A DNA stretch of 64,000 bases from Aulosira sp. ZfuVER01 (lineage in GTDB: Bacteria > Cyanobacteriota > Cyanobacteriia > Cyanobacteriales > Nostocaceae). Under the pieces are notes generated by a model. The model was not told the DNA's origin and made no database searches. It saw nothing but the letters and a program-made list of their open reading frames with translations. The number at the start of each line of letters is the position of its first letter. Position 1 is the first letter of the stretch. The position numbers and the translations under genes were made by a program. Shown here one piece after another: positions 52,876-59,101 of this stretch. Location of the stretch: contig JAVRCV020000036.1 in the NCBI GenBank assembly GCA_034530615.2, positions 1 to 64,000 of the forward strand, written 5' to 3'.

Positions 52876-53937
52876 ATGACAACTGACAATTTTTTCTTGC
52901 GTAATGTTTGGTATTACGCTTTGCCAAGCGATCGCTTAAAACCCGGTAAGATGCTTGCTCGGACTTTCTTGGGAGAACCAGTACTGCTGTGTCGTAACCG
53001 AGAGGGTAAAGCATTTGCTTTAAAGGATATTTGTCCTCATCGGGCTGTACCTTTAAGTTGCGGTCAATTTGATGGGCAGGAAGTAGAATGCTGTTACCAC
53101 GGTTGGCGTTTTAACCATGCGGGACGTTGCACCGCGATTCCCTCTCTAGTAGAAGGGCACGATGTAGATTTAAATCGCTACAATGTAGAATCCTACGAGA
53201 TTCGCGAAACCCAAGGTAATATCTGGATATTTATGCCAGAACCGGGTAAATCTAAGTCTCCTGCCTCAGCAATGGAAATTCCAGAAATTCCAGAGATTCC
53301 TGGCTTTGGCGATCGCCCGCCGCAGTTAGTGGAAGTGATGCGGTTTCCCTGCTTTATCGATCATGCAGTCTTAGGCTTGATGGACCCTGCCCATTCACCT
53401 TACGTTCATCGGGTATGGTGGTGGCGTTCTGGACAACTCCATGACGAAATCAAGCAATTTGATTCTTCACCTTACGGGTTTACCATGCGTAAACACCAAT
53501 TACCAGCCAATACAGGTGCAGCTTATAAGTTCATCGGCGGCGGAATTCCCGAAATAGAGATTTCGTTTCGGATACCGGGAGTAAGGGTAGAAAACATCAC
53601 AACTGCCAAGCATCAAGTTGCCAACCTGACAGCAATTACACCAATTTCGGAAACAGAATGCGAAGTTAATTTTGCGTTTTATTGGACAGTACCTTGGGCA
53701 GGATTTGCCAAGCCGTTGATCCGTGTATTAACACGGGCTTTTTTAGGACAAGACCGCACAGTAGTTGAAAAGCAGCAGATTGGCTTGAAATACGATCCAG
53801 TGCTGCGGCTGATTAAAGATTCAGATGTGCAGGCGCAATGGTATTACCAGTTAAAGCGAGAATATGCGCGTTCAATCGCTGAAGGTCGTCCATTTGTCAA
53901 CCCAGTGAAGAGTCAAGTATTGCACTGGCGGGCTTGA
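52876..53937 (+). CDS. Rieske non-heme iron oxygenase alpha subunit
   Basis: CPHR...CCYHGW and the D..H...VH iron ligands. Confidence 0.92.
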   Translation: MTTDNFFLRNVWYYALPSDRLKPGKMLARTFLGEPVLLCRNREGKAFALKDICPHRAVPLSCGQFDGQEVECCYHGWRFNHAGRCTAIPSLVEGHDVDLNRYNVESYEIRETQGNIWIFMPEPGKSKSPASAMEIPEIPEIPGFGDRPPQLVEVMRFPCFIDHAVLGLMDPAHSPYVHRVWWWRSGQLHDEIKQFDSSPYGFTMRKHQLPANTGAAYKFIGGGIPEIEISFRIPGVRVENITTAKHQVANLTAITPISETECEVNFAFYWTVPWAGFAKPLIRVLTRAFLGQDRTVVEKQQIGLKYDPVLRLIKDSDVQAQWYYQLKREYARSIAEGRPFVNPVKSQVLHWRA

Positions 53938-53990
53938 TAGAGGCTTCCCTATTGCAATCTGCTAGCGAATGGTAGGTTTACAATTTGATT

Positions 53991-54170
53991 GCATCGGCTT
54001 GCATTGTTAATGCATTGGCTTGTTATGCCAATGCATCGGTCTGTTATGTTAATACGTTGGTCTGTTATGCCAATACGTCGGCTTGTTATGCTAATACGTC
54101 GGTTTGTTATGCCAATACGTCGGTCTGTTATGCCAATACGTCGGTCTGTTATGTTAATACGGCAGCTTGC
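53991..54170. repeat. 21-bp tandem array (about 8 copies), consensus GTCTGTTATGCCAATACGTCG
   Basis: Contiguous degenerate units with no spacers. Confidence 0.92.
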
Positions 54171-54401
54171 AAAATTAACCTGAGAACTTGAATCGGTAGT
54201 GCATTAGGCGTTTCCCCATAACGCACCTAATATCTCTGGAGACTACACCCTGAGTTACTCAGCCTGGCATTTGTTGAAGAATAGGAGCGATCGCCTAAGA
54301 TTCTCTATAGGGGCAAATTCTATAGCAGTCACAAATCATTTGTGAGAAACTACAAATGTCAAATTACAAATGATAGCATACTAAAATTAGTCTAAATATC
54401 T

Positions 54402-55754
54402 ATGAATATATCTAATTATCAACGTGCTAATACTCTTAAAAAAGCCTTCCAAGTGTGTACTTTAGAACCCTTGGAAGGTGAAGACATTGAAAAATATTAT
54501 GTTGATTTATCAGCAGTACGTAAAACTTCAGCCGTTGAGAGCGTTAGTACAATTTTAGACTTTCAAGAACCAGCAGATTTTAGAACGATTTTATTTACTG
54601 GACATCGGGGTTGTGGCAAAAGCACTGAGCTAAAACGCATTCAAAAGCTTTGGAACGAAAGTTATCATGTAATTTATTTAGAAGTAAATGAAGAAACCGA
54701 TATTAACGATGCCAGTTATACGGATTTATATTTAATCGTTATCAAGCAAGTAGAATTTGAACTAAGAAAATTAGGTTTACAATTTGACGAAAAACTCTTA
54801 CATAACTTTGAAGAATGGTTTAAGGATATTACTAAAGAAACTGAAGAAAGTGTTGAAAAATCGGTCAGCATTGAGGGAGAAGCAACACTGAAACCCGAAG
54901 CACCATTTATTGCTAAATTAATGGTCAAATTGCTGGCACAAATTAAAGGTTCTGATAAACAAAAAACGACGATTCGCCAAACTTTAGAAAAAGACTTGTC
55001 TCGCTTAAAAGCAGATATTAATTTATTGCTAGGTGATGCTTACGTTAAACTCAGGAAAAAATATCCAGATTATAAAGGACTACTAATTATATTTGACAAC
55101 ATGGATAGGGTTCCGCCTGCGGTTGCTAACCATTTATTTTTTGACTATGCGGCTCAGTTGCAAGAATTGAACTGTACCATTATTTATACAGTCCCAATTT
55201 CTATTCTATGTTCACCTAAAAACCCCTTGGCTTTGTTTAATGGTAATCCCCATATAGTGCCAATGGTGAATATATACGAATTAGACAGGGATAGTTGCCA
55301 TTTAAATTGCAATCAAGCTGGACTAGACGCAACAGCAAGCTTAATTGAAAAGCGCGTAGATATTGATGCTGTTTTTGAATCTCGCCAAGAATTGCTAGAA
55401 TTAGCCAAAGCTAGTGGTGGCCATGTTCGCCAATTGATGCAAATGATGCAAATTGCTTGTCAAACTGCTAGTACACACAAGCATCCTAAAATTACGGCTG
55501 AAGATGTCACCTATGCTATCAAGCAGCAGCAATTTAATTTTGAAAGGTTTATACCTGAAGAACATTATCATTATTTAGCCCAAGTATGTATCACCAAAGA
55601 TGTGAGTAAAGATGATATTGGTCAGTTAATGTTATTTAACACTTCAGTTTTAGAATACAACGGCAATAAAAGGTGGAATTACCCCAATCCAGTGGTAAAG
55701 CAAAATGAATTCTTCCAAAAAGCACTTGAATCAGCACTCGCAGGAAAATCATAA
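54402..55754 (+). CDS. P-loop ATPase (AAA+/STAND/KAP-like)
   Basis: Walker A GHRGCGKST, Walker B LIIFDNMD and SGGHVR. Confidence 0.88.
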   Translation: MNISNYQRANTLKKAFQVCTLEPLEGEDIEKYYVDLSAVRKTSAVESVSTILDFQEPADFRTILFTGHRGCGKSTELKRIQKLWNESYHVIYLEVNEETDINDASYTDLYLIVIKQVEFELRKLGLQFDEKLLHNFEEWFKDITKETEESVEKSVSIEGEATLKPEAPFIAKLMVKLLAQIKGSDKQKTTIRQTLEKDLSRLKADINLLLGDAYVKLRKKYPDYKGLLIIFDNMDRVPPAVANHLFFDYAAQLQELNCTIIYTVPISILCSPKNPLALFNGNPHIVPMVNIYELDRDSCHLNCNQAGLDATASLIEKRVDIDAVFESRQELLELAKASGGHVRQLMQMMQIACQTASTHKHPKITAEDVTYAIKQQQFNFERFIPEEHYHYLAQVCITKDVSKDDIGQLMLFNTSVLEYNGNKRWNYPNPVVKQNEFFQKALESALAGKS

Positions 55755-57642
55755 CGCCGAACTTGGGCAGTTTATTACACTGAATCAAGATATATTTGCT
55801 GAATTACTCACTTTTATCGACTTTGCCGAAAAATTTACACTGGGTTTTGTAGAAGTTAATTTTCCCCCAGATGCAGACTTATTAATTGCAGCTTTGCGAA
55901 CTCACCCGGAATGTGAACAGATTCAGTTTTGTGTTCTCAACTTCCCCGAAGAAAACTTGCGTTTTCTTCGGGATGAGATTGTCAAAGAATTAGCGAATAT
56001 TCAAGTAGACGCAAACAAGAAATTAGTTTTAGTTGTGCGGGGACTAGCAAAATCTATTGGCGTATATGGCGAATATCCCCCAATTTTACAAGACTTGAAT
56101 TTTGTACGCGATGCTTATAAAAGAACTGTTCCCCATCCAATATTATTTATTCTTCCAGATTATGCCATTACTCGCCTAGCTAAATTCGCCCCAGATTTTT
56201 GGGCTTGGAGTTCTGGAGTATTTCGGTTTAAAACACCAGAAAATACTAAAGAAAATGCGTTAAGCCAAGCTCAAAATACAGAAAGTATTGTAGATAGATT
56301 ACCACCGCCCGAAAAGCAAGAACGGATAGATTTATTAGAGCGTCTGTTGATGGAATATAAACCCACAGGCTATTCTATGCCAAAGGGAGATATCCGCAGA
56401 TATAGTAATGTTTTACATCAGTTAGGAGTGGCTTATCTCAGTCACAGAAAGCCAGAGAAAGCGAGGGAATATTTATCAGAAGCCGAAAAAATCGCTGAGA
56501 ATTTCAAAGATAGTAGCTTTCAAATTGAAGTTATCAACTCTTTGGGAAATACTTATTCTCAGCAAAGACAATTTGAGACAGCAATTACTTATTATCAACA
56601 AGCATTAAATATTGCCCAAAAGCTCAAAAATAAGCAAGAGGAAGCTACGTCTTTGTTTTATTTGGGTAATGCTTACTTAGAATTGAGACAATTTGCACAA
56701 GCTAATGAATATTACCAGCAGTGTTTAAAGATCGAGCAAGAGCTAGGCGATCGCTATTCTCACGCCTCTACCTACGGACAGTTGGGAATGCTTGCCCAAC
56801 AATTACGGGAATATGAGGAGGCACGGCACAATTACCAAGAGGCTTTAGCTATTTTTAGCGAATATGGCGATCGCTATAACCAAGCCAACATCTACCACAA
56901 CTTGGGAATAGTTGCCCAAGATTTGCAGGAATATGAGGAGGCACTGCGCAATTATCAGCAAGCTTTAGCTATTTGTATCGAATATGGCGATCGCTATAAC
57001 CAAGCCAGCACTTACTATCATTTGGGAATACTCGCCCAACAATTGCAGGAATATGAAGAGGCGCGGCGCAATTATCAACAAGCTTTAGCTATTTGTATCG
57101 AATATGGCGATCGCTATAACCAAGCTCGCATCTACCACGAGTTGGGAAGAGTTACCCAAAAATTGCGGGAATATGAGGAGGCGCGGCGCAATTATCAACA
57201 AGCTTTGGCTATTTGTCTAGAATATGGCGACTATTATAACCCAGCCCGCACATATTACCAGTTGGGAATGCTTGCCCAACAATTGCAGGAATATGAGGAG
57301 GCACGGCGTAATTACCAACAGGCTTTAGCTATAAAAATCGAATATGGCGATCGCTCTTCTCAAGCCAGCATCTACCACAACTTGGGAAGAGTTGCCCAAA
57401 AATTGCAGGAATATGAGGAAGCACGGTGCAATTATCAACAAGCTTTGACTATTTTGATCGAAGATGGCAGTCGCTATTCCCAAGCCAGCACTTACGGGCA
57501 ATTAGGATTGCTTGCAGAAGCGGAGAAAAACTTCCCAGAGGCGAGGGCGAATTTGCAGACAGCGTTGGCGATATATGTTGAGTATAAAGATGAATATTGG
57601 GCGGCGGTGGCGCGGGGAATTTTAGAGAGATTACCAGAGTGA
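55705..57642 (+). CDS. TPR protein with APDFWAW N-terminal domain and seven 40-aa tandem repeats
   Basis: LNFVRD..APDFWAW N-terminal domain, TPR consensus and 120-bp DNA repeats at about 56745-57580. Confidence 0.9.
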   Translation: MNSSKKHLNQHSQENHNAELGQFITLNQDIFAELLTFIDFAEKFTLGFVEVNFPPDADLLIAALRTHPECEQIQFCVLNFPEENLRFLRDEIVKELANIQVDANKKLVLVVRGLAKSIGVYGEYPPILQDLNFVRDAYKRTVPHPILFILPDYAITRLAKFAPDFWAWSSGVFRFKTPENTKENALSQAQNTESIVDRLPPPEKQERIDLLERLLMEYKPTGYSMPKGDIRRYSNVLHQLGVAYLSHRKPEKAREYLSEAEKIAENFKDSSFQIEVINSLGNTYSQQRQFETAITYYQQALNIAQKLKNKQEEATSLFYLGNAYLELRQFAQANEYYQQCLKIEQELGDRYSHASTYGQLGMLAQQLREYEEARHNYQEALAIFSEYGDRYNQANIYHNLGIVAQDLQEYEEALRNYQQALAICIEYGDRYNQASTYYHLGILAQQLQEYEEARRNYQQALAICIEYGDRYNQARIYHELGRVTQKLREYEEARRNYQQALAICLEYGDYYNPARTYYQLGMLAQQLQEYEEARRNYQQALAIKIEYGDRSSQASIYHNLGRVAQKLQEYEEARCNYQQALTILIEDGSRYSQASTYGQLGLLAEAEKNFPEARANLQTALAIYVEYKDEYWAAVARGILERLPE

Positions 57643-57684: not shown

Positions 57685-57978
57685 CTATTCTTCTGATCTG
57701 GAAGTGATTTGTTGTGAACCGTGGATAACAGCCAGAACTTCTATTTGCTCAGGTTTGATGTAGTAAATAATTCTATATGAACCTTCAATAACTTCACGAA
57801 TTTGCTCTGTTTGAAATTCTGGCACAATTCGACCTGATAAAGGAAAATTAGCAATCTGTTCTGAACGCCTCGTTAGTCGATCAACTACTCTAGCCGCATA
57901 TTGCGGTGAATTTTGGGCAATGTATGTATAAATTGCTGAAAGATTCTCTACGGCTGTTTCTGTCCAATAAACTTTCAC
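57685..57978 (-). CDS. RelE/ParE-family toxin
   Basis: VYWT..A..L..I..YI, P.SGR.VPE, YRIIY and VIHG. Confidence 0.9.
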   Translation of the reverse strand: MKVYWTETAVENLSAIYTYIAQNSPQYAARVVDRLTRRSEQIANFPLSGRIVPEFQTEQIREVIEGSYRIIYYIKPEQIEVLAVIHGSQQITSRSEE

Positions 57979-58175
57979 TCAGGTAGACCAAATTTTGCTC
58001 TAACTTCTTGCACAGAAGTCAGTCTACCAGCCTGACTGTCAGCCAGTCCAGCTTCTACAACTTGCCTGACGTAAATCTCGTACATCAAATCATCCCATGT
58101 AAAATTGTCTGGCAATCTCTCAATCAATTTTTTGGCTTCTTCTTTGATGTTTAGCTTTTCCATAGATTTTCTCAA
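57975..58175 (-). CDS. Putative antitoxin
   Basis: LP....WDDLMYEIYVRQ..EAGL.D..AGR; ATGA-coupled to the toxin. Confidence 0.82.
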   Translation of the reverse strand: MRKSMEKLNIKEEAKKLIERLPDNFTWDDLMYEIYVRQVVEAGLADSQAGRLTSVQEVRAKFGLPE

Positions 58176-58250: not shown

Positions 58251-58874
58251 TCAGCGACTCATTACAAAAATCTGTTCAGCCGTTAAAGGAATGTTCGGAA
58301 ACAATTTAGAATCAATTCGATCCTCTCCTCGAAACACCTTTGGGGGTAAATACTCTGCATCTTCAAGTTGGTAGATTGTAATTGTCGGCTGCTTGGGTGA
58401 GCCAATGAAGCGAATGCCACCAAAAGCAGCATAGTCCACAATGATGTACTCTAAAACCCCCAAGTCCTCATATTCAGCCAGTTTTGTTAGGTAGTCGTCC
58501 TTCCAATTGTTACTAACGACTTCAATAATTCCGGGTGGTGGAATATATGCAGCAGCAGAACTAGAAATAGTTTTCATCCGCTGCCATTCTTCCCTAGCAA
58601 ATATGACAATATTGGCTTTGCGGCTTTTTTCCTTTTCTCCTGGCGCTATCTTAAGCCGCACCTGCTTGGACTGTCGCGACACGTAAGGTAGGTCATTTTC
58701 TTGGCAGTGATTTTCAAGGTAGGCACACAGCCTCTGGATCAAATCCTCATGATTTGCATTTGGTTCTAATAATGGCACAGGAATTCCATCCAATAGCTCA
58801 AACTCTCTGCCTGAACCATCATCCCAGGCAAGAAACTCTTCAAAAGTCAGTGGTTGTGTGACGGTTGCGTACAT
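58251..58874 (-). CDS. Uma2-family (PD-D/ExK) endonuclease
   Basis: From ATG 58874: TFEEFL, ELLDG, IEVVS...D..K..EY...G..EY.IVD. Confidence 0.88.
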   Translation of the reverse strand: MYATVTQPLTFEEFLAWDDGSGREFELLDGIPVPLLEPNANHEDLIQRLCAYLENHCQENDLPYVSRQSKQVRLKIAPGEKEKSRKANIVIFAREEWQRMKTISSSAAAYIPPPGIIEVVSNNWKDDYLTKLAEYEDLGVLEYIIVDYAAFGGIRFIGSPKQPTITIYQLEDAEYLPPKVFRGEDRIDSKLFPNIPLTAEQIFVMSR

Positions 58875-59101
58875 CGCCCTCGCTCCATTGCTGACGGGTA
58901 CTTCACTCAATGCTATCAAGATGTACTGACAATGGGCATTGGGCATGGGGTATTGGGCATTGGCTTCGACTTCGCTCAGCCACCAGGGCATGGATTTTCA
59001 TGCTTGGTTGTGGGATTTTCTCGTGATTGACTGACTTAAAAGACACTTTTTGTTGATATATTCCCAGCAGTTGATACAAAATAGCTGGGTGTTCTCAATT
59101 T

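Follow-up and report, generated by a model that had tools for sequence, protein, structure and literature searches.

Bacterial systems in which an active STAND-type nucleoside triphosphatase (NTPase) is encoded next to an inactive one have been predicted computationally. In the nSTAND2 system, as described in the part of the paper by Kaur et al. (2021, eLife, PMC8195603) covered here, the first of two genes encodes a "STAND+wHTH" protein (wHTH, winged helix-turn-helix) and the second one encodes a STAND-type module with eroded NTP-binding motifs, which precedes TPRs and variable modules. The inactive module is fused to variable effectors, most often GT4 or HEPN, and the active and inactive NTPases were inferred to form a hetero-multimer. 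The ternary iSTAND systems (Kaur et al., 2020, eLife, PMC7159879, again in the part covered here) combine a MoxR-vWA pair with an inactive STAND-type module, iSTAND. The present analysis deals with a pair of adjacent genes in a 64,000-nucleotide stretch of the genome of Aulosira sp. ZfuVER01 (contig JAVRCV020000036.1, positions 1 to 64,000 of the forward strand), referred to below as the window. Gene A (54402..55754, + strand) codes for a 450-amino-acid (aa) P-loop ATPase, and gene B (55705..57642, + strand) codes for a 645-aa partner protein with an ATPase-like head and a TPR array. We hold, with moderate confidence, that the two proteins form an NTP-dependent STAND-type switch with a likely role in biological conflicts.

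Comparison with described systems

The gene order, the combination of an active with an inactive module, and the TPRs are common to this pair and to nSTAND2 as described in that part of PMC8195603. The feature that defines nSTAND2, two adjacent genes each of which opens with a STAND-type module, the second one eroded, is found here as well. The differences are that the nSTAND2 proteins listed in parts 18 and 19 of the data file fig6-data1 come from Proteobacteria and one member of Calditrichaeota and end in HEPN or GT4, with neither a cyanobacterial entry nor any form that is TPR-only or carries CHAT or nSTAND1-WD40 in these two parts. Further, nSTAND2 is described there as having a wHTH domain after the inactive module, whereas none was identified in B. 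Pfam analysis of 87 members of the A family showed nSTAND_NTPase5 in 62 of them (best E value, 1.8e-06) and no nSTAND2 model among the 25 of 33 matching families listed. Locus tags of the family do not occur in the supplements of PMC8195603 (file 13 being outside the search). The nSTAND2 system is the closest published one within the part of the literature covered; the pair is compared with it by description only and is not classed as nSTAND2.

The likeness to iSTAND, as far as the covered part of PMC7159879 goes, lies in an inactive STAND-type module that serves as the constant part and carries variable fused modules; iSTAND was predicted to be an NTP-dependent conflict system and is enriched in multicellular bacteria. 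Unlike in iSTAND, no MoxR or vWA gene is present in the window or among the neighbors of the 80 loci compared across the GTDB (see below). The pair is not described in the covered parts of a STAND survey preprint (10.64898/2026.01.04.697583) and a ParA preprint (10.64898/2026.10.19.760177), and the covered parts of the literature on nSTAND1, taken without the bioRxiv supplements, describe no cognate ATPase encoded upstream. The pair has no specific family in the Pfam, NCBIfam, and PADLOC libraries and falls into unnamed or generic clusters of the protein atlas. An earlier note on this DNA, made from the sequence alone, recognized no named system here, and indeed no PADLOC model matched at a meaningful score. 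An active and inactive STAND-type pair is thus of a kind already predicted computationally, and the two-gene module itself is real and strongly conserved.

Conservation of the gene pair

The earlier note proposed a two-gene module with a STAND-like ATPase and a TPR-containing partner on separate chains, and this proposal is borne out by the gene layout and by the genome comparisons. As it observed, the 3' end of gene A overlaps the 5' end of gene B by 50 bp in different reading frames (55705..55754, + strand). At paralogous and orthologous loci, too, A and B overlap or are separated by a short gap. There is no + strand terminator-like site between the two genes of the window. A profile scan of the whole 8.03-Mb genome of Aulosira sp. 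ZfuVER01 revealed 8 A-type genes, each of which (8/8) has a B-type gene directly downstream on the same strand.

Of 31 related genomes (this one included), 27 contained A-type genes, with 1 to 19 matches in each; the query detected none in the other four, which are 3.5 to 4.8 Mb in size. The pairing in the relatives was assessed at the best-scoring 80 of the 124 near-full-length matches found in the 30 other genomes, with the remaining 44 outside the count. At 75 of these 80 loci, the B-type N-terminal domain is found at the start of the next open reading frame (ORF) on the same strand, and two of the five misses fall at contig ends. Among the best 80 of 591 relatives found across the GTDB, a B-type domain is encoded downstream of A at 71 loci, or at 70 of the 74 loci where 700 bp or more of sequence was available. 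The paired loci include members of Chloroflexota, Acidobacteriota, Planctomycetota, and Thiotrichales, as well as Ca. Albibeggiatoa and an archaeon of the family Methanotrichaceae; the A orthogroup itself is present in many cyanobacterial orders. When 300 sampled Gammaproteobacteria were scanned with the profile of the B-type domain, 8 of them matched, and an A-type gene lies directly upstream at all 10 loci (10/10), fragmented in two of them. The pairing of A with B is far beyond chance, ancient, and strict. At 152 loci, moreover, the divergence of A and that of B-N, the N-terminal domain of B, are closely correlated (r = 0.92 across 11,476 locus pairs; highest value after shuffling, 0.05; r = 0.66 for pairs with A identity below 50%), which speaks for inheritance as a cognate unit.

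Several loci depart from the common layout. The scan of the own genome also returned one weak match and one orphan B-type domain, a stand-alone protein of 177 aa (G000:C23:20052-20582, - strand; E value of 3.5e-48 to the family profile), beside which no A-type gene was detected. At one paralogous locus (C6), A has a C-terminal extension that brings it to 531 aa, and a 217-aa ORF without a Pfam family (G000:C6:76163-76819, - strand; L212) lies between A and B; it is the only locus in this genome with a gene inserted between the two. Two long A-type frames, L054 (G010:C180; 1,105 aa) and G017:C75 (977 aa), could represent either fusions or A genes in tandem.

Gene A encodes an Orc/Cdc6-like ATPase

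The predicted structure of protein A (predicted local distance difference test [pLDDT], 90.3; predicted template modeling score [pTM], 0.89) was compared with solved structures in the VIA structure search. Its matches were Cdc6 (1fnn_A; Z score, 15.6; root mean square deviation [rmsd], 7.2; 280 residues aligned), the archaeal ATPase 2qen (Z, 14.5; rmsd, 4.6; 301 residues; 2fna matched as well), the plant NLR protein NRC4 (9cc9_G; Z, 14.4; rmsd, 4.8; 285 residues), TnsC (7mbw_A; Z, 14.3; rmsd, 3.9; 292 residues), and CED-4 (2a5y_C; Z, 13.3; rmsd, 4.9; 287 residues), with Orc1 also matching over nearly the full length. Residues 11 to 450 of the model align to Cdc6 and residues 23 to 450 to CED-4, the C-terminal β-hairpin region included. 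By its predicted fold, A is an AAA+ base with a lid and a C-terminal winged helix, a member of the Orc/Cdc6-STAND group. The base contains a soluble helical insert (approximately residues 106 to 220, 36% charged), and no domain other than short helices is present at the N terminus of the model. Protein A has no repeats either: its chain ends at residue 450, and the TPRs are on B. Sequence searches of the solved structures with A or its profile gave only P-loop-level matches.

The nucleotide-binding domain (NBD)-lid-winged-helix plan is the one found in STAND and NLR proteins, such as Apaf-1/CED-4, plant NRC proteins, Avs, and MalT/AfsR. The Orc1/Cdc6 initiators are the best structural matches of A; unlike them, the pair is bacterial, has multiple paralogs, and is fused to sensor repeats, and it displays no detectable sequence similarity to these proteins and no evidence of origin or DNA binding.

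The earlier note described A as an intact P-loop ATPase, in agreement with the conservation pattern. In the 87 family members, the Walker A residues G67, G70, G72, and K73 (motif at aa 67 to 75, encoded at 54600..54626, + strand) and the Walker B residue D232 (strand and following residues, aa 227 to 236, encoded at 55080..55109, + strand) are invariant, and so are R318 and the sensor-2 region G339-G340-x-x-R343. Residues N233, D235, and R236, within the same segment as D232, are conserved in at least 90% of the members. Since the Walker A, Walker B, and sensor-2 residues are invariant, A looks catalytically competent.

Existing domain libraries do not capture this protein well: Pfam yields weak generic P-loop matches (AAA_14; E value, 7.6e-07) and a marginal match to KAP_NTPase (PF07693; 20.7 bits against a cut-off of 20; E value, 2.7e-04), a model matched at an E value of ≤0.01 by 70 of the 87 family members. 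The KAP family, as defined by Aravind and colleagues in 2004, is said to have transmembrane helices inserted in the P-loop domain. Protein A has no membrane-like segment (the highest 19-residue Kyte-Doolittle mean is 1.17, and 0.88 in the insert), and its assignment to the KAP NTPases was rejected for this reason. The best PADLOC matches, mad8 (E value, 1.9e-06) and AriA (E value, 2.6e-04), are to the P-loop region.

Gene B opens with an AAA+ domain that lacks the P-loop

Residues 1 to ∼225 of B match nothing in Pfam, NCBIfam, or PADLOC; all matches begin at residue 227 or later. This part of the protein contains the head, referred to here as B-N (the first ∼180 residues; 55705..56244, + strand), and a helical linker (aa 181 to 230; 56245..56394, + strand) with helices at residues 179 to 196 and 203 to 214 in the model. 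The earlier note singled out two segments of the head, LNFVRD (aa 131 to 136) and APDFWAW (aa 162 to 168), and stated that it has no Walker A motif; no G-x4-GK[ST] motif was found in it. Whether it is a degenerate P-loop domain, a check proposed in the note, was addressed with the predicted structure, a five-stranded α/β domain (pLDDT, 86.0; pTM, 0.78). Foldseek matched it to RFC1 (6vvo_A; E value, 6.8e-06), ORC2, Orc3, and the catalytically dead AAA+-like domain of Sir3. In the wide VIA search, which is independent of Foldseek, B-N matched TnsC (7rzy_1; Z, 11.3; rmsd, 3.6; 162 residues aligned), and all 50 matches listed were AAA+ or STAND chains, among them dynein AAA, Pex1/6, Orc3, BrxC, and Avs5. 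Judging by its predicted fold, B-N is a degenerate P-loop domain of the AAA+ type, a pseudo-ATPase with an eroded Walker A motif.

The resemblance does not extend to sequence. The profile-profile comparison of A with B-N gave a probability of 1%, i.e., no relation, so the AAA+ domains of the two proteins are linked by fold only, and the B-N profile found nothing beyond P-loop-level matches among the sequences of solved structures. The B-N family has conserved features of its own: R135, P163, and D164 are invariant, and F44, L46, C51, G113, N132, F165, and F175 are nearly so. An exhaustive profile search yielded 4,597 representative clusters at an E value of ≤1e-3 (919 at 1e-30), and the match begins no later than residue 28 in 148 of the 150 representatives listed.

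Predicted complex of A with the head of B

The earlier note also suggested modeling the two proteins together. The model of A with B-N reached an ipSAE (interaction prediction score from aligned errors) of 0.81 (three runs, 0.80 to 0.82), and the best control reached 0.01; part of this score may reflect likeness to known complexes because AAA+ heteromers have already been solved. Of 157 solved complexes, 116 attain this mark, as do 2 of 215 mismatched pairs, counts that hold only roughly for this model, which was built from custom alignments. The runs have at least 94% of their contacts in common, with a partner pLDDT of at least 83. The model speaks for a physical interaction at the level of a prediction.

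The predicted interface comprises residues 32 to 42, 123 to 139, and 155 to 174 of B, i.e., the regions of the invariant or nearly invariant N132/R135 and P163/D164. On the side of A, it is formed by residues 12 to 22, 69 and 70 (P-loop), 94 to 102, 236 and 238 (just past Walker B), 343 to 358 (sensor-2 helix), 375 to 383, and 412 and 413; the conserved R236 is therefore within it. The invariant-motif regions of B (aa 132 to 139 and 163 and 164) face the P-loop residues 69 and 70, R236, and the sensor-2 helix (343 to 358) of A. B-N is thus predicted to dock on the nucleotide-binding face of A, in a geometry that resembles the inter-protomer contacts of AAA+ proteins, as in the heteromers of ORC or clamp loaders. 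The mixture of active and inactive AAA+ subunits is another point of likeness to these heteromers, and inactive or degenerate subunits (Orc3, the AAA+-like domain of Sir3, and RFC1) are among the best matches of B-N.

The TPR array

The long TPR array that the earlier note reported after the head begins at residue 227 by its Pfam match (TPR_12; E value, 3.9e-70) and makes up the rest of B (aa 231 to 645; 56395..57642, + strand); the PADLOC models matched by B are generic TPR ones only. It consists of 40-aa units and is the variable part of the pair. Tandem Repeats Finder detects a 120-bp repeat within it (56782..57490, + strand; 5.9 copies, 81% matches). Among the orthologs within the genus, identity is 93 to 95% in A, 91 to 93% in B-N, 82 to 88% in the linker, and 75 to 90% in the TPR array; for A, it is 54 to 87% across cyanobacterial orders. 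The length of the array shifts by 40 or 80 aa among orthologs, in which B has 605, 645, 646, or 725 aa.

In a comparison of seven 40-aa units, 10 of the 40 positions hold 156 of the 291 non-synonymous pair differences, and several positions show synonymous change only. The raw totals of 291 non-synonymous and 142 synonymous differences give no evidence of an overall ratio of the respective rates (dN/dS) above 1. This mosaic fits a repeat-based binding surface under reshaping. C-terminal TPR or WD40 repeats that evolve fast and likely act as the sensor are also typical of STAND and NLR proteins.

Domains that follow the head in related proteins

The TPR-only architecture of B is one of many in which the head is found. 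Representatives of 12 of the 17 partner subfamilies in related genomes carry, past a short TPR linker, a complete nSTAND1 NTPase (PF20703), usually followed by WD40 repeats; 4 of the others are TPR-only, and 1 has no Pfam match. The 8 partners in the own genome include four TPR-only proteins (that of the window among them), three nSTAND1-WD40 giants, one of which is cut at a contig end, and a TPR protein with an unexplained tail of ∼450 aa. This tail, encoded at the C61 paralogous locus, appeared HTH-like by eye, an assignment that was dropped for lack of a Pfam match at 1e-05. Of the partners scanned across phyla, 14 of 16 are TPR-only, as are all 8 gammaproteobacterial ones. An ortholog from Microcystis, which belongs to the same subfamily as the pair in the window, has an additional C-terminal CHAT protease domain (E value, 1.9e-39), and a Schlesneria partner contains NNH1 and NACHT.

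A local BLAST search with pieces from this genome found an nSTAND1-like region in 118 of the 150 best B-N representatives. Thirteen representatives were chosen for a Pfam scan (ten with unexplained C termini, two in which the head is not N-terminal, and one with a NACHT-like region), and all 13 contained nSTAND1. It is followed in them by TPR (2 proteins), CHASE2 (3 proteins), Roc-COR, protein kinase, dynamin-like GTPase, a PDC sensor, NACHT-NCH2, WD40, phosphoenolpyruvate carboxylase, or nothing recognizable (1 protein). None of the 54 partners analyzed with Pfam (17 + 16 + 8 + 13) had a HEPN or GT4 match, with the proviso that divergent HEPN domains can escape Pfam. B-N is thus a dedicated docking head mounted on many sensor or effector scaffolds, and A travels with the head.

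One of the 13 proteins, P0318 (1,932 aa), combines B-N and nSTAND1 with a full-length phosphoenolpyruvate carboxylase (PF00311; E value, 2.6e-294), a case of an NLR-like protein that has acquired a housekeeping enzyme as its C-terminal module.

These architectures bear on the idea, put forward in the earlier note, that the pair is simply an NLR protein split in two, with A as the nucleotide-binding oligomerization (NOD) module, B as the detached sensor, and the N-terminal domain of B as a remnant linker. Protein A alone does have the NBD-lid-winged-helix plan, the repeats are on B, and the genes overlap and are always adjacent. However, B-N is a well-folded AAA+ domain that is conserved family-wide, with invariant residues, and not a remnant. 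A single chain that joins A- and B-type parts was not seen as a common form; one 1,105-aa A-containing ORF (L054) may be of this kind. The partners in 12 of the 17 subfamilies have a complete STAND NTPase of their own, so A comes on top of it as an additional ATPase and does not supply a NOD that a split NLR would lack. In STAND and NLR proteins, the ATPase and the repeats are on one chain and the repeat protein opens with an effector; here, they are on separate chains, the repeat protein opens with a dead AAA+ head, and the pair in the window has no effector. A simple split NLR is accordingly improbable, and the preferred reading remains a heteromeric switch built from an active and an inactive ATPase.

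Genomic neighborhoods

An exact ortholog of the pair (93 to 96% identity) is found in 5 of the 14 other genomes of the genus, in one of them interrupted by a stop codon and a contig end, and an ortholog at 70% identity is found in one genome of another family. In four congeners (G002, G003, G008, and G014), the pair occupies one and the same chromosomal site, with the same Rieske gene upstream and varying genes next to it. An MFS gene comes directly past the pair in G002 and G014; there is a methyltransferase gene and a Uma2 gene in G008, and a different Uma2 gene together with other genes in G003. Three congeners without the pair show at this site a 57-aa remnant, 74% identical to the first TPRs of B, with the Rieske gene before it and the same Uma2 and MFS genes after it (G004); a TPR remnant and a 930-aa ORF of no known family (G013); or a DMFA2_C protein (G007). 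Given these remnants and the variable cargo between the Rieske and MFS genes, the site is a variable hotspot, and some lineages have lost the pair from it by deletion.

Immediately downstream of the pair, on the opposite strand, the window encodes a ParE-family toxin (57685-57978, - strand; 97 aa; PF05016; E value, 5.6e-19). A small ORF (66 aa, no family match) lies upstream of the toxin gene and overlaps it by 4 bp; it likely codes for the antitoxin, and the two genes span 57685-58175 (- strand). They are followed by a Uma2 nuclease gene (58251-58991, - strand; PF05685; E value, 1.6e-26), which is also a PADLOC candidate (PDC-S03; E value, 9.5e-64) and belongs to a family with 74 matches in this genome. 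The location and the families of these genes are as given in the earlier note; they are not part of the module. The ParE pair is absent in G002, G014, and G008, and the Uma2 gene is absent in the first two and different in G003; besides, the same Uma2 gene is present in G004, which lacks the pair. The ParE pair is therefore an independent insertion, and Uma2 is an independent tenant of the site.

No third gene recurs with the subfamily of the window among the 80 GTDB-wide loci. The only strongly recurrent neighbors are ftsQ and ftsZ, which accompany one paralogous subfamily: at 12 of the 80 loci, from diverse cyanobacterial genera (L165, L167, L170, L171, L177, L186 to L188, L190, L191, L193, and L197), it is encoded divergently beside ftsQ (POTRA_1) and ftsZ. 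The representative of this subfamily in the own genome (G000:C4:77125-83772, + strand) has a 1,712-aa B-N-nSTAND1-WD40 partner. Its synteny may point to a role of that subfamily that is stable and possibly linked to division. Genes for a PAS-GAF cyclase and for a response regulator with GGDEF and EAL domains are each found near 9 of the 80 loci.

The pair, which is found at a variable hotspot, might also be a TnsC-like regulator with the target selector of a transposon or another mobile element. TnsC is indeed among the best structural matches of both A (Z, 14.3) and B-N (Z, 11.3). On the other hand, the matches of A to Cdc6/Orc and STAND proteins are as good or better, the flanks of the pair in the window contain no transposase or integrase and no terminal repeats, and four congeners have the pair at the same chromosomal site. 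Since no transposase genes are present either in the window flanks or among the recurrent neighbors, the only strong ones of which are ftsQ and ftsZ beside that one paralogous subfamily, this highly improbable reading was rejected in favor of the STAND-type switch.

Proposed mechanism and biological role

In the mechanism proposed here, the pseudo-ATPase head of B would dock on the nucleotide face of A and would regulate or complete its ATP site, possibly by means of the invariant R135. The TPR array would serve as the ligand-binding part of the switch, and binding of the ligand would license ATP-dependent assembly or turnover of A, as in NLR/STAND proteins. In the form found in the window, the output would need to come from A itself, through its winged helix or helical insert, or from other partners; in the relatives, it could be delivered by the modules fused to B, such as the CHAT protease, NACHT, or nSTAND1-WD40. 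A counter-invader or cell-fate role is plausible as the most likely biological context because of these fusions, the patchy occurrence of the ortholog at a hotspot, the variable repeats, and the expansion of the family in filamentous cyanobacteria and other complex bacteria.

Several observations weigh against this interpretation. The interface exists as a model only, built without nucleotide, and R135 itself is absent from its confident contacts; for both reasons, its action as a trans-acting arginine is something that we infer. The correlated divergence of A and B-N speaks for joint inheritance and not for binding, because kin are not independent. The pair matches no Avs or other STAND defense model in PADLOC (PADLOC-DB 2.0) and, as the earlier note remarked, has no recognizable effector domain. 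Protein A is unusually conserved for a defense gene. The fused CHASE2, kinase, and PDC sensor domains and the neighboring cyclase and GGDEF-EAL genes are ordinary signaling parts, and the ftsQ-ftsZ synteny makes that paralog look like a housekeeping or developmental gene.

Much of this evidence would suit a cellular, non-immune switch in signal transduction or assembly, in which the TPRs sense an endogenous protein or metabolite and the pair regulates division, differentiation, or complex assembly, in the manner of MalT/AfsR-type regulators or TPR assembly factors. Strong purifying selection on A and B-N, the spread of the orthogroup over many cyanobacterial orders, and the occurrence of Roc-COR among the fused signaling modules point the same way. 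A core function, however, should not be so dispensable: the ortholog was not found in 9 of the 14 same-genus genomes, with deletion remnants left at the site. The number of family matches per genome, from 1 to 19 with none found in 4 of the 31 relatives, the changes in repeat copy number, and the hypervariable positions of the repeats also argue against such a switch. The CHAT, NACHT, and nSTAND1-WD40 fusions are hallmarks of predicted conflict systems, according to the covered parts of PMC7159879 and PMC8195603. We consider a non-immune role rather unlikely and prefer the switch with a role in conflicts.

A broader proposal can be made tentatively. The pair might represent a large class of two-protein NLR-type machines, in which a dead AAA+ docking head, mounted on sensors as diverse as TPR arrays, TPR-CHAT, NACHT, and nSTAND1 combined with WD40, CHASE2, Roc-COR, or whole enzymes, recruits one cognate live Orc/Cdc6-like ATPase as the common engine or output, so that this ATPase takes the place of an effector domain. 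Such machines would act as new immune or cell-fate switches from archaea to cyanobacteria, with an expansion in multicellular bacteria. Should the predicted heteromer prove real, a single rule would apply to thousands of uncharacterized giant bacterial proteins known as "TPR" or "WD40" proteins, the pairing of a pseudo-ATPase head with a live ATPase on another chain, the gene for which lies just upstream. This rule would cover the NLR-like nSTAND1 proteins that are already suspected of immune roles, account for an N-terminal region that has until now been described as "without predicted domains," and add a heteromeric mechanism of the ORC or clamp-loader kind to bacterial NLR-type biology. The TPR-only form in the window offers a compact two-gene model of the system. 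The paralog linked to ftsQ and ftsZ raises the question of whether part of the family is developmental, rather than defensive, in filamentous cyanobacteria.

Repeats and RNA matches around the pair

The intergenic DNA that separates gene A from the Rieske gene contains a 21-bp tandem repeat (54021-54161; 6.7 copies, 86% matches), which gives rise to spurious ORFs with a heptapeptide periodicity in two frames. Rfam matched nothing in the upstream intergenic region (53900-54450). Four RNA sequencing runs from one study of another organism contain matches only to ∼40-bp pieces of the TPR repeats (90 to 95% alike) and to a 38-bp intergenic stretch (54321-54358). These matches cover neither A nor B-N, and no statement on expression rests on them. 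The 38-bp stretch, which is probably a short dispersed element, resembles, with 3 differences, the interior of abundant 2- to 3.6-kb RNA contigs from these runs; the flanks of these contigs do not match the window, and a flanking string from them does not occur in it.

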